10,930 bases of DNA. Origin: a virus (taxonomy: Duplodnaviria > Heunggongvirae > Uroviricota > Caudoviricetes). The notes under the pieces are model-generated. The model saw only the letters and a list, made by a program, of their open reading frames with translations, ran no database searches and had not been told where the DNA came from. The position numbers were made by a program, and so were the translations under genes. Every line of letters starts with the position of its first letter. The stretch's first letter is position 1. Shown here one piece after another: positions 2,158 to 7,215 of the stretch. The stretch lies in the IMG/VR virus record IMGVR_UViG_2531839666_000021, positions 1 through 10,930 of that record. One strand, 5' to 3'.

Positions 2158-3091
2158 ATGACTGATATTAACGATGTAATCAAGACCATTGATGAACTTA
2201 TTGATGGCGGCGTACTGACGCAGTATGCCATCGCCAGAGAGGCGGGAATTTCCGACGGCACATTATCGGCTTTCCGCAAGGGGAAATATAAAGGCGATAA
2301 CGCCGCTGTGGCTGCTTCCCTGCGTTCCTGGTATGAGAACTGGAATAAACAAAGCGCACTGCCGGAACCGCCGCAGTTTGTGGAAACGCAGACAGTTCAG
2401 GAGCTGCGCGCACTGTTTCAGGCGGTTCGCCTGATGGGCTGTATTAACGTCATTGTGGGCGTGCCGGGGGTAGGTAAAAACGGCCACCGCCCGTAATTAC
2501 TGCCAGGAGCAACCAAACACCTGGATGATCACCCTGTCACCCGCGCACTCCAGCGTCACGGAGTGTCTGCTGGAGCTGGCCGATGCGCTGGGGATTGATT
2601 ACACCCGCGCGAACAAAGGGGCATTATCCCGCGCCATCCGCCGTCGCCTGATGGGAACGCGTGGACTGGTGATTGTGGATGAGGCGGATCATCTTGGTAT
2701 TGACGGTCTGGAGCAACTCCGGGCAATTCAGGACGCCACGGGGATCGGGATGGTGCTTATTGGTAACCCGCGCGGATTGTTTAAAGGTGGACGCCGCGCC
2801 TTTGATGATTTATCGCGCCTGTTCAGCCGTCTTGCCCGTACAAAACAACTTCGCAAGGCCAAAAAGGCGGATGTGCTGGCCATTGCCAGGGCATGGGGTA
2901 TCAGTGGTGAGGCCGAGCTGGCCGTCATGCAGGCTATCGCTGAAAAGCCGGGAGCGTTACGCGTTCTGACACATACGCTTAACCAGGCGTGGCTCACCGC
3001 CAGCGGTGAAGGTGCGGCGCTGACAGAAAAACATATTAATGCGGCCTTTAAAGAGGTTTATACCAACCCTGAATTACTCTCACAGGTGTGA
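2158..3091 (+). CDS. MuB-like AAA+ ATPase (transposition target-DNA activator B); frameshifted at A5 run 2476-2480
   Basis: RBS GAGAGG 2144-2149, ATG 2158. Frame-1 ORF 2158-2496 ends GVPGVGK-NGHRP*; frame 2 continues KTATARNY...WMITLSP to stop at 3091. The joined product has Walker A GVPGVGKT and Walker B LVIVDEADHL and resembles MuB over its N-terminus and core. Confidence 0.85.
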
Positions 3092-3315
3092 TTATGGCGG
3101 TATTTTATATTCCTGATATTTACGGACGCTTTTACCTGGTTAATTTCGATAACGTGAAGGTGATTTCACTGGCCGAAAATAAAGAATGTGGCGATTTACT
3201 TTTTGAATTTAATGACCGCACACGAATGGTGATATCTGCCGGACTTGATCGCGAAGGTGCGACAGAAGTTTACAGCGGAATATGCCGTTCTGTTGGTGCG
3301 AAACAAGTCAGCTAA
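3088..3315 (+). CDS. small hypothetical protein (73-75 aa) immediately downstream of B; occupies the position of kil in Mu
   Basis: ORF with GTG 3088 or ATG 3094, overlapping the B stop (3089-3091); AGGTG at 3084-3088. No recognisable motif; the Kil suggestion is positional only. Confidence 0.5.
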   Translation: MIMAVFYIPDIYGRFYLVNFDNVKVISLAENKECGDLLFEFNDRTRMVISAGLDREGATEVYSGICRSVGAKQVS

Positions 3316-3327
3316 ATGAGGTGTTAT

Positions 3328-3429
3328 ATGAATATGCAATCCTGCGGTAACAAAATGAATTTATTCGACTCCCTGAACAGCGCGCGCCGTCTGACCGAAC
3401 TTGCCGGTGCGGTACTGGAAACGCAGTAA
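3328..3429 (+). CDS. very small hypothetical ORF (33 aa)
   Basis: ATG 3328 preceded by GAGGTG 3318-3323; product MNMQSCGNKMNLFDSLNSARRLTELAGAVLETQ. May be part of a longer frameshifted gene together with the frame-2 reading 3377-3580. Confidence 0.3.
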   Translation: MNMQSCGNKMNLFDSLNSARRLTELAGAVLETQ

Positions 3430-3581
3430 GCGCTACCACACGTTTTGCACTGAAACCACGCCGCCGGTAGGCAACGTGCAGGGAACCGGTGAAATTGAAA
3501 TCACCATACAGACCAACGGCCTGCGCCGCCGTGTGAAGGCCACCCGCATCAGCGGCTGCACGGTTTACTGGGAGGTGTGAG

Positions 3582-3863
3582 GTGAAAAAAAATCTCATTG
3601 CATGGGCGTGGTCGAGTGGTCTTATTGAGTTTGGTTACGTCCTGCCGGAAGGTGCATTGCCGATAGTTGCCGGAAAGCCTGCCACGGTACGGCATGTGAT
3701 TGAGGTTATGGCGCGTCATGGACGTGATGAACAGGAGCAGTTACTGGTTCCGGGGATACCGGAAGCGGTGACGGAGGAAGAAGCCTTTAATGCCATGATT
3801 CGGTTCTGCCGTGAGGTCAGACGCCGGGTCAGTTATCCAAACAGAACGAGGACCAGAGGATGA
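3582..3863 (+). CDS. hypothetical protein (93 aa)
   Basis: GTG 3582 with GGAGG 3571-3575 at a 6-nt spacer; stop overlaps the next start (ATGA at 3860-3863). Confidence 0.55.
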   Translation: MKKNLIAWAWSSGLIEFGYVLPEGALPIVAGKPATVRHVIEVMARHGRDEQEQLLVPGIPEAVTEEEAFNAMIRFCREVRRRVSYPNRTRTRG

Positions 3864-4132
3864 GTAAAGTCGTACGCATTATTTTCGAATACAAGGAGCA
3901 CGTTATCCATAAAAACGCTGATGGAACAGTGCGCATGGGGGTAAGTCTGGACATACGTTCAACCGGGATAAAGCAGAAAGGTGATGGACCCGCCATGATT
4001 TTTGGAGTGGTTATGCTCGCGGAAAGCAGAGACTTTGCTGAACTTGTGGCAATGAAAGCCAGAGCGCTCATGAAAGATATGAACATGAGTTCCGGGGTTA
4101 TTAAAGGTAATGAATTTAATCAGCAGGGGTAA
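3860..4132 (+). CDS. hypothetical protein (90 aa), member of a tandem paralog pair
   Basis: ATG 3860 in an ATGA overlap with the upstream stop; RBS AGAGG 3855-3859. N-terminus MSKVVRIIFEYKEH is shared with the next ORF. Confidence 0.55.
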   Translation: MSKVVRIIFEYKEHVIHKNADGTVRMGVSLDIRSTGIKQKGDGPAMIFGVVMLAESRDFAELVAMKARALMKDMNMSSGVIKGNEFNQQG

Positions 4133-4136
4133 TTCC

Positions 4137-4430
4137 ATGAGCAAAGTACGCGTTATTTTTGAATTTGAGCATGTTTCGCATGACGAAAAACCGGCAGGCA
4201 ATGACAGTGTTGAAGTGCATGAAAAGATTGGAGTGGATGTGAAAACAGAACGTGATACGGATAACAGGCCGACGTCACTCTGTGACGTTTATGCAAGCAT
4301 TCTCCAGTATCACAGTCCTGTAATTATTCAGTTTCTCTCAGCGGAATTTCAGGCATCTGTACAGGCTTTTGGGGCGGATGCCATCATTAAACGCCACCGC
4401 GTGCATAAAGCATCAGGCACACTGCAATAA
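4137..4430 (+). CDS. hypothetical protein (97 aa), paralog of 3860-4132
   Basis: ATG 4137 (the track ORF starts at 4110, but ATG 4137 follows the upstream stop at 4130-4132 and a G-rich RBS 4126-4129). N-terminus MSKVRVIFEFEH. Confidence 0.55.
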   Translation: MSKVRVIFEFEHVSHDEKPAGNDSVEVHEKIGVDVKTERDTDNRPTSLCDVYASILQYHSPVIIQFLSAEFQASVQAFGADAIIKRHRVHKASGTLQ

Positions 4431-4440
4431 GGAAAACAAA

Positions 4441-4970
4441 ATGGCTAAACGTGTTACAAAATTAAAGGCCGCAGCCGAGGCTGCACCGCAGACCCGTGAA
4501 GAGGTCAGCCGCGATATCCGCACCCTGGGCGATATTCAGCGAGAGGCGCTGCGCCTGGAAACAGCGATGAATGATGAAGTGGCAGAAATCACCGCCCGTT
4601 ATACGCCGCAGATTGAAAACCTTAAAAAGAAATCAAAGTGCTTTTTAAGGGGATTCAGGACTGGTGCAAAACCAACCGTGATGAGCTGACGAACGGCGGC
4701 AAAACCAAAACTGCCAATCTGACCACCGGAACGGTGTCATGGCGACTGGGGAATCCATCATGCAGCGTCAGTCGTGATGTGGAAGGTGTGATTGAAATGC
4801 TGCGCCGTATGGGGCTTGAGCGATTCATCCGCACGAAAGAGGAAGTGAACAAGGAAGCCGTCCTGGCGGAGCCGGATGCGGTGAAAGGCATTGCCGGTAT
4901 AAAGGTGAATAAAGGCGCTGAAAGTTTTTATGTCGAGCCTTTTGAACAGGACGCCGGACTGAATAAATAA
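4441..4970 (+). CDS. gam: host-nuclease inhibitor protein Gam (Mu Gam family); frameshifted near 4624-4629
   Basis: RBS AAGGA 4429-4433, ATG 4441. Frame-1 part MAKRVTKLKAAAEA...LRLETAMNDEVAEIT and frame-3 part (from 4626) KEIKVLFKGIQDWCKTNRDELTNGGKTKTANL...FIRTKEEVNKEA...PFEQDAGL both match the Mu Gam pattern as I recall it; the join requires one extra base in the A5/G run 4624-4629. Confidence 0.85.
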
Positions 4971-5067
4971 CACCACATTAAATCTTTAAATATCACATCG
5001 TTTTAATTATGGCGCTCGCGTCAGGGGACTGCCTGCGCCTGAAAGCTGAAAATAAGGAATCGGAAAC

Positions 5068-5610
5068 ATGGCATATTTTTATTTCAAATTAGACATAGTG
5101 TACACAAATAAATATTTCACCGAATATCAGCGGGATGTTTTACCGCTACGCAACAGTATTCTTCGGGCATTACTGAAAAATACAGGCGCTGCCGGATTGC
5201 GCTTAAAGCCGTTCGCCATGGACGTAATCAGTGAGTTTTATTTTTCTGGTTCTCTGCCTGCGGGCTGGCGTAAGCGCGATGATGTGGCTTTTATCGGGGA
5301 CGGACCGTGCTTTATTGCCAGACCTGATGAGTTATGCCCTGAAGGACCGGCGATTGCCGCAATGGTTGAAGCCGCTGAACGCGATTTAAGAAAGCATCCT
5401 GATTTCCTTGTCTGGCTCTGTGAAAAGCTGGGGGTAATGAGAATCCCCTCCATGTTTAACACGGACTCCTGGTGGACCCCTTCGTTCTCCCGTGATGCCC
5501 TGTGCGTGGTGTTTAAAGTGGGCGCTTATGGCAGGGAAATAAACGGGTGTATTCCTGAAGAATGCCAGGAAATTAAACATTCTGAATATGTGGCGCTGAC
5601 GGAGGAATAA
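5068..5610 (+). CDS. hypothetical protein (180 aa)
   Basis: ATG 5068 with AAGGA 5054-5058; strongly AT-rich 5' end; no recognisable motif. Confidence 0.5.
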   Translation: MAYFYFKLDIVYTNKYFTEYQRDVLPLRNSILRALLKNTGAAGLRLKPFAMDVISEFYFSGSLPAGWRKRDDVAFIGDGPCFIARPDELCPEGPAIAAMVEAAERDLRKHPDFLVWLCEKLGVMRIPSMFNTDSWWTPSFSRDALCVVFKVGAYGREINGCIPEECQEIKHSEYVALTEE

Positions 5611-6663: not shown

Positions 6664-7215
6664 ATGATGATTTTACAACCCATGGGGAGAAAAGGCCGTG
6701 CACCCGCTCATGTCCGTGCGTGGACACCTGAAGAAGATGCACTGCTGATTGCGCTTTATCCATCCACCCCGGTTAAGGATATTGCTGTCAGGGTAAAAAG
6801 AAGTTTCTGGGGTGTACATAACCGGATTGTTTTATTACGCGGTACTTACCCGGAGTTGCTCAAATGCAAACGTCCAAGATTTAAACATGATGAAGATAAA
6901 TTTATCCGAAAAAATGCCAGAACGATGACCGGTAAGCAAATAGGAGAATATCTGGGGCGAGACCGGGATTCTGTCCACAAACGGGCGCGATATATTGGCG
7001 TAAGCATGAAAAAATACGGAGAGTTGCTGCCCTTCACCCGTATACCTGATGATGATGTTCATCTTATTCGTGAATTACGGGATGCTGAATCACCACGACG
7101 TCTTACCTTCCGGGAAATAGGCGAGAAATTTGAATTATCCGAGAGTACGGTGAATTTTATTTATCACCATCGCCGGACTGCCGAAGATGTTGTATTACGG
7201 GAGTTAATGCCATGA
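6664..7215 (+). CDS. putative DNA-binding protein with repeated Myb/SANT-like or GcrA-like HTH motifs
   Basis: RBS GGGGG 6654-6658, ATG 6664. Motifs AWTPEEDALLIALY, MTGKQIGEYLGRDRDSVHKRARYIGVS and LTFREIGEKFELSESTVNFIYHHRR. First gene of the AT-rich island. Confidence 0.55.
   Translation: MMILQPMGRKGRAPAHVRAWTPEEDALLIALYPSTPVKDIAVRVKRSFWGVHNRIVLLRGTYPELLKCKRPRFKHDEDKFIRKNARTMTGKQIGEYLGRDRDSVHKRARYIGVSMKKYGELLPFTRIPDDDVHLIRELRDAESPRRLTFREIGEKFELSESTVNFIYHHRRTAEDVVLRELMP

Follow-up and report, generated by a model that had tools for sequence, protein, structure and literature searches.

Two small, consecutive genes upstream of gam in the early region of an Sp18-type Mu-like prophage of E. coli, here called ORF1 and ORF2, are true, very diverged homologues of one fast-evolving accessory family, as judged from profile comparisons of their protein sequences. 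The best explanation overall, which we consider probable rather than secure, is that they are tandem homologues that result from a derived duplication and that their products are early-expressed stoichiometric binders. Both genes are coding, are under relaxed or partly diversifying constraint, and are exchanged as cassettes among otherwise similar prophages.

The gene pair and its setting in the early operon

The window, meaning the whole stretch of 10,930 nucleotides that was analysed, represents an Sp18-type Mu-like prophage of E. coli. The DNA of the ORF1/ORF2 region is 97.9% identical to the Sakai Sp18 genes ECs_4950 and ECs_4951, and Mu-like elements inserted in Stx phages are 97% identical to the window. 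In E. coli AUSMDU00014361, the RefSeq record is 100% identical over 3860-4430 and both ORFs are annotated there with matching boundaries. The earlier note had described two same-strand ORFs of 90 and 97 aa at this place, and both the ORF list and the RefSeq boundaries agree with that description (Table 1).

Table 1. Features of the prophage early region discussed in the text (window coordinates).
Feature	Length	Position	Strand	Assignment and remarks
phrog_1518 gene	93 aa	3582..3863	+	Upstream neighbour of ORF1; 'host nuclease inhibitor' label by annotation only
ORF1, begins MSKVVRIIFEYKEHVIH	90 aa	3860..4132	+	ECs_4950-type; phrog_4107; RefSeq CDS WP_000049431.1
ORF1 5' head, MSKVVRIIFEY	codons 1-11	3860..3892	+	Predicted N-terminal beta-strand
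ORF2, begins MSKVRVIFEFEHVSH	97 aa	4137..4430	+	ECs_4951-type; phrog_2230; RefSeq CDS WP_000049303.1
ORF2 5' head, MSKVRVIFEF	codons 1-10	4137..4166	+	Most conserved segment of the family
gam		4441..4970	+	Host-nuclease inhibitor Gam; PF07352 matches both halves; intact in reference

The genes are ordered as transposase A, B, a 73-aa gene, a Kil-like gene, the phrog_1518 gene, ORF1, ORF2 and gam, and 3' of gam there are more early genes, gemA (gp16-family) and mor homologues, and a lysozyme gene. The ORF1 ATG overlaps the stop codon of the upstream gene (ATGA), 4 nt separate the ORF1 stop from the ORF2 start, and 10 nt separate the ORF2 stop from the gam start. A scan of the + strand from 3000 to 5200 found no promoter-like or terminator-like site, and an Rfam scan of the window returned zero matches. 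From the tight gene spacing together with the absence of such sites between 3000 and 5200, we infer that ORF1 and ORF2 are co-transcribed within the early operon. The longer ATG at 4110 offered by the ORF finder as the start of ORF2 was rejected, as all homologues begin with MSK or MSNK, corresponding to 4137; antisense ORFs at 3829-4086 and 3959-4201 were likewise set aside, as they overlap the conserved sense frames.

In the window, gam is split by a one-base deletion, with the indel at 4624. Aligned with NZ_CP045827, which at 98% identity is the nearest complete genome, the window shows about 19 indels of one or two bases (at 1102, 2091, 2476, 3419-3453, 4433, 4624, 4982-4986, 5637, 7393, 7817, 8697, 8982, 9196, 9240 and 10887), which leave transposase A, B, the Kil-like gene, gam and further genes each in two ORFs; the stretch 3860-4430 is free of them. 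These indels reflect either error-prone (long-read-like) sequence or a decaying prophage.

Several other features of the region vary. The phrog_1518 gene, which has no Pfam match, is found in some prophages and missing from others that are otherwise colinear (window 3582-3863; locus L004, 3926-4000; proteins P0001 and P0039-P0041). It is missing in strain CI5, and where it is absent a short leader (MKLLHGSALSSGQTPG...) joins the start of ORF1 or ORF2. The ORF1 start codon is polymorphic, being GTG in Sakai Sp18 (L003, 5000) and in three other loci of the 39 surveyed, and in strain NCCP 13905 (L056, 2501-2803) the ORF1 stop codon is lost, giving a 100-aa product that overlaps the ORF2 start; protein P0005 is alike. 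Farther along the early region, at window 6664-7215, there is a 183-aa ORF whose homologues in other strains are labelled by RefSeq as SANT/Myb-like DNA-binding or DNA-binding proteins; a SANT/Myb-like domain is unusual in the early region of a Mu-like element.

Copy number, allele exchange and the origin of the second gene

The copy-number survey of related prophages that the earlier note had proposed gave the following pattern. One copy is found at this slot in Salmonella (L048), Klebsiella (L051), Serratia (L050) and a few E. coli, namely CP022279 (L053) and CI5 (L004), and two copies are found in Sp18-type prophages. The position of the slot, directly upstream of gam or of a DUF3164 gene and after kil and the phrog_1518 gene, is the same in the window, Sakai, Salmonella, Klebsiella, Serratia and CP022279, and the 90-92-aa gene upstream of the single copy in Salmonella and Klebsiella is a phrog_1518 homologue, not ORF1. 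Of 5426 complete E. coli genomes, 228 carry ORF1, with 271 occurrences in all, and 232 carry ORF2, with 274 occurrences, so that the pair forms a fixed two-gene module in approximately 4% of them; ORF2 follows ORF1 at constant spacing in all 39 of the IMG/VR loci that extend far enough. No homologue of ORF1 or ORF2 was found in 42 distant Mu-like loci fetched through Gam, including those of Gilliamella, Haemophilus, Pseudomonas and Rhodobacter. Because related prophages hold one copy at the slot, we take two copies to be the derived state, fixed in the Sp18-type lineage.

In Salmonella and Klebsiella (L048, 4303-4941; L051, 4303-4941), the gene following the ORF2 homologue encodes a 212-aa DUF3164 protein (PF11363), not Gam. 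The DUF3164 protein may be a functional replacement of Gam at the same slot.

Comparison of five prophages by the Nei-Gojobori method gave dN/dS values of 0.26-0.38 for ORF1 (with one near-identical pair at 1.05) and 0.23-0.59 for ORF2. Lower values were found for the phrog_1518 gene (0-0.22) and for B, kil and gam (0-0.07). The divergence of both genes is sharply bounded. Between Sakai and strain 7_12_30A, the ORF2 bodies differ with a dN of 0.32 and a dS of 0.92, while B, kil and gam are identical; this divergence begins right after the first 30 nt and stops at the last codons, and the ORF2 heads are 100% identical between alleles whose bodies differ at a dS of about 0.9. ORF1 shows a like pattern between Sakai and DLI.5a, with divergence only after the first 30 nt. 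When two ORF1 alleles (a0 and a1) and two ORF2 alleles (b0 and b1) are considered together, all four combinations are present (16, 5, 14 and 1 loci), and therefore recombination has occurred between ORF1 and ORF2. Such free reassortment argues weakly against the two products forming an obligate co-evolving heterodimer.

We would also like to note a natural in-frame ORF1-ORF2 fusion from E. coli, P0036, which is 67 aa long (MSKVV...GPAMIFG followed by ADAIIKRHRVHKASGTLQ). It was made by a deletion at TTTTGG microhomologies found in both genes, joining window position ~4006 to ~4371.

The simplest reading of the two-copy state is that the pair arose by in-situ duplication followed by fast divergence, and we regard this as moderately likely. 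The ancestor would have had one gene directly upstream of gam (or of the DUF3164 gene in Salmonella and Klebsiella), and the E. coli Sp18-type lineage would have acquired a second copy, most simply via tandem duplication. The upstream copy, ORF1, would then have diverged until its N-terminal strand alone remained recognisable in pairwise comparison. Of the two, ORF1 is the more derived copy, and ORF2 is the one that most resembles the single-copy genes found in Salmonella, Klebsiella and Serratia.

The alternative that survives best, although we think it somewhat unlikely, is that ORF1 is a divergent family member imported from another Mu-like phage. Recombination in the conserved 30-nt head, acting as the crossover point for the exchange of cassettes, would have placed it in tandem. 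The ORF1 HMM ranks the Klebsiella and Salmonella members (16.2 and 14.5 bits) above the adjacent ORF2 (5.3 bits); by this measure the profile of ORF1 is nearer to the genes from Klebsiella and Salmonella than to its own neighbour, which fits a recent in-situ duplication less easily. An import is also compatible with the replacement of the bodies of both genes as cassettes in near-identical prophages, the borders lying just after the head and at the stop codon, and with the joints seen in two E. coli strains. In CI5 and CP022279, the single-copy gene has an ORF2-type body preceded by the leader otherwise known from upstream of ORF1, and the head of the CP022279 gene is a hybrid, reading ATGAGTAAAATCGTACGC as in ORF1 and then GTTATTTTTGAGTTT as in ORF2, which marks the head region as a junction. 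These two genes may represent either the pre-duplication ancestral single gene or the loss of ORF1 by recombination between the two heads. Nevertheless, ORF1-type genes were found in the E. coli two-gene module and nowhere else, and the head of ORF1 has the E. coli form (MSKV.R.IFE) and not that of Salmonella and Klebsiella (MSNKVQVIFT). The local duplication suggested by the earlier note is thus borne out as to homology and as to the derived two-copy state; duplication in situ is the most parsimonious route and a fairly probable one, and import of a divergent allele is the less likely of the two.

Homology beyond the conserved head

Pairwise comparison of ORF1 and ORF2 detects the start of the proteins and nothing after it. 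The family begins with the motif M-S-(N)-K-V-[RQ]-V-I-F-x-F-E, which reads MSKVRVIFEFE in ORF2 and MSKVVRIIFEYK in ORF1. BLASTP aligned residues 1-17 of ORF1 with residues 1-15 of ORF2 (12/17 identical, with two one-residue gaps) at an E-value of 7e-4, which is a single-comparison value, and 9 of 5000 residue shuffles equalled or beat the Smith-Waterman score of 45. Once the heads were cut away, the pair scored 21, equal to the shuffle mean, and no pairwise similarity was found past residue 17. The heads differ mostly at synonymous or conservative sites and by two in-frame codon indels, which indicates that their likeness reflects old, protein-level conservation and not a recent DNA copy. A gapless repeat finder run on the window did not report the shared heads, presumably because two 3-nt indels separate them.

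At the nucleotide level, five of six genes of the single-copy or ORF2 type (ORF2 of the window at 4152-4160, CI5, CP022279, Salmonella and Klebsiella) encode V-I-F of the head as GTT ATT TTT, and the genes sharing these codons are otherwise only about 30% identical as proteins. The corresponding codons are GTC ATT TTT in Serratia and ATT ATT TTC in ORF1. This suggests a possible nucleotide-level constraint near the start, related perhaps to translation initiation or to a role as a recombination anchor.

Each ORF is matched by its own PHROG family: ORF1 matches phrog_4107 over its whole length (E 2.2e-60), and residues 3-97 of ORF2 match positions 1-88 of the 89 in the phrog_2230 profile (E 2.5e-39). 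In the PHROG scan there was no cross-match between phrog_4107 and phrog_2230 at E <=1, and ORF1 was not matched by the phrog_2230 model. The ORF1 family is restricted to E. coli, with members 72-98% identical. The ORF2 family seemed just as narrow initially, but an exhaustive profile search added Salmonella and Serratia members of approximately 30% identity, and a wider alignment search yielded at least 159 clusters at 90% identity, mostly from Salmonella with others from Klebsiella and Serratia. A search of 1.84 billion representatives with the ORF2 profile did not return ORF1 at E <=0.001.

Direct profile-profile comparison gave a different picture from the pairwise one, and the alignment grew with the depth of the ORF2 profile. 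Using hhalign against the ORF1 profile, an ORF2 profile of 8 sequences (A2) aligned over 33 columns with a probability of 81.7%, one of 14 sequences (A4) over 65 columns with a probability of 86.7%, and one of 85 sequences (A5) over 74-76 columns with a probability of 88.8-92.4% and E-values of 5e-7 to 2.5e-6. When the first 23 residues were cut from both families, the register was unchanged and the score was 28.1. This score was reached by none of 150 column shuffles (mean 10.1, sd 2.3, maximum 20.0) and by none of 150 block shuffles (mean 11.0, maximum 16.8), and the reversed profile scored 6.2. In the aligned columns the Gly-Pro of the loop, an aromatic residue and the hydrophobic sites of helix 1 are retained. 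The reciprocal HMM searches agree: the ORF2-family HMM matches ORF1 at 17-24 bits (E 1e-3 to 2e-6), with the next ORF at E >1, all other ORFs in about 100 loci at 8 bits or less, and ORF2 itself at 114 bits, while the ORF1 HMM matches the Klebsiella, Salmonella and CP022279 members at E-values of 4e-4 to 4e-3.

The earlier note had described two paralogues with a common start and strong divergence thereafter. The common start and the divergence are plain from the BLASTP result, and paralogy was upheld against the possibility that the similarity stops within the first 10 residues and lacks significance, the profiles aligning over 74-76 columns and the trimmed score exceeding all 300 shuffles. 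That only the 5' head is common to the two genes, through a partial duplication or a mosaic joint, and that their bodies are unrelated proteins, is in our view very unlikely. It would account for the silence of BLASTP and Smith-Waterman past residue 17, for the separate PHROG families, and for the departure of the low-confidence ORF1 model from ORF2 at residues 45-53. It does not accommodate an alignment of trimmed profiles that keeps its register and lies about 8 sd above shuffles, the conserved positions in the aligned columns, or head differences of the old, protein-level kind described above. A weak pairwise signal is moreover normal for this family, because undisputed members are likewise undetectable by BLASTP (ORF2 against Klebsiella P0162, E 0.025). 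Similarly, a common head with a diverged body is the pattern of the whole family, not the mark of a partial duplication, because residues 1-11 are by far the least variable family-wide (mean column entropy of 0.45 bits, against 1.1-2.0 elsewhere). We conclude from these comparisons that phrog_2230 and phrog_4107 very probably constitute one family, specific to Mu-like prophages of Enterobacteriaceae.

The structure predictions that the earlier note had called for were informative for one of the two products. The AF2 model of ORF2, made with 84 homologues, has a pLDDT of 86 and a pTM of 0.71, and shows strands at 4-21 and 24-39 forming a long beta-hairpin, helices at 48-58 and 60-77, and a disordered tail; a long hairpin plus two helices can be confidently predicted as the ORF2 fold. 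The ORF1 model was made from a shallow alignment and is unreliable (pLDDT 64). In that model the hairpin (3-18 and 24-38) and the last helix (57-73) are like those of ORF2, and a strand at 45-53 stands in place of ORF2 helix 1, so that a fold common to both products is tentative. A comparison with BFVD returned zero matches. When the family profile was searched against PDB sequences, the best E-value was 0.18, and there was no convincing match to a solved fold.

Finally, that one or both ORFs are chance reading frames in the kil-gam spacer, as small products without a curated family match might be, is extremely improbable in view of a dN/dS of about 0.3 with length and frame kept across alleles saturated at synonymous sites, hundreds of constant-length homologues, the confident ORF2 model, and a tight neighbour spacing consistent with translational coupling.

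Possible role and comparison with known systems

Scans of both ORFs with Pfam, NCBIfam and PADLOC gave no match that passed the cut-off, the one hit being that of ORF2 to ASRT at an E-value of 0.041. Identity with Gam or another host-nuclease inhibitor of PF07352 was ruled out for both, as neither matches Pfam and the real gam is the next gene. There was also no match to a known defence or anti-defence protein in PADLOC, which models defence rather than anti-defence proteins and is hence a weak test here. No hydrophobic span of membrane-helix length was found in ORF1 or ORF2 (maximum 19-residue hydropathy of 1.2), and a membrane or secreted protein was rejected on this basis; an acidic DNA mimic of the Ocr/ArdA kind was rejected on the predicted pI values of 9.45 for ORF1 and 6.03 for ORF2. 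Nothing relevant on ECs4950/ECs4951, on Mu gp7 or on anti-defence genes of Mu turned up in the literature that was searched.

The pair lies between Kil and Gam, both of which act on the host, Kil by blocking cell division and Gam by shielding DNA ends from RecBCD. ORF1 and ORF2 would presumably be expressed at induction or infection, along with transposase, Kil and Gam. ORF2 lacks catalytic, DNA-binding and membrane features, and because of this stoichiometric binding would be its likeliest mode of action. The bound partner may be a variable host or rival-phage protein, the outcome being host takeover, anti-defence or exclusion, and the two copies may have different specificities. The N-terminal strand would be the invariant structural core and possibly a subunit interface. 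Overall, we infer an early accessory role in binding a host or rival-phage factor. The earlier note had linked the duplication to host-interaction genes; the faster evolution of the pair (dN/dS of about 0.3, compared to 0.07 or less) and its allele swapping lend that idea indirect support.

A bolder reading, which we regard as quite unlikely, is that the slot upstream of gam is a dedicated hypervariable cassette locus for a hitherto unclassified small alpha/beta fold that works in anti-defence or exclusion. Recombination anchored at the invariant 30-nt head and at the conserved end of the gene would swap the bodies that set specificity, and E. coli would have doubled the slot to hold two specificities.

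As such, it is common and ordinary for the early region of a prophage to hold small accessory genes that form a tandem pair and have diverged. The locus, beside the anti-RecBCD gene gam, is a hotspot of allele exchange and of lineage-specific duplication, and these genes are therefore reasonable candidates for inclusion in host-takeover or anti-defence screens of the Mu-like prophages of STEC and Salmonella.

Among known genes, one of the closest is Mu gp7 (Mup07, formerly E6; phrog_10252), an 87-aa product encoded, like the pair, between kil and gam in the semi-essential early region of Mu. Its start, MAKVIIEIK, resembles that of the pair, it has a hydrophobic helix after a Gly-rich loop, and it matches phrog_2230 at a borderline E-value of 0.009 over nearly its full length; unlike ORF1 and ORF2, it is parted from gam by gp8 and gp9. 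In hhalign, an alignment of the Mu, SfMu and Yersinia gp7 proteins scored 9.1 against the ORF2 profile, below the shuffle mean of 10.3, and 12.9 (E 0.11) against the ORF1 profile, and a tblastn search of 50,697 phage records with ORF1 and ORF2 returned no Mu match at E <=1. Membership of Mu gp7 in the family is therefore not supported, the profile comparisons being no better than shuffles and the match to phrog_2230 the lone link. It is a hypothetical protein in the Mu record, and we know of no function assigned to it.

The closest known systems also include, by our reckoning, the two-layer alpha/beta sandwich dimerisation modules (the M20 peptidase dimerisation domain, the RNA polymerase alpha N-terminal domain and the ACT domain). 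A likeness in concept is provided by the Mu-like (transposable) phages of Pseudomonas, for which Cazares et al. (2014, PMC4378225) describe accessory 'regions of genomic plasticity' with variable small genes, including anti-CRISPRs. Those regions are located elsewhere in the genome and have no sequence relationship to ORF1 or ORF2; in both cases, a conserved transposable-phage backbone has fixed slots that exchange small, variable, lineage-specific genes. The most direct comparison remains that with phrog_2230 and phrog_4107, which match ORF2 and ORF1, respectively, over their whole length and are both annotated as 'unknown function'. PHROGs keeps them as unrelated families, whereas the profile-profile and reciprocal HMM evidence joins them here, and the new element of this work is the merging of these two phage families into one.
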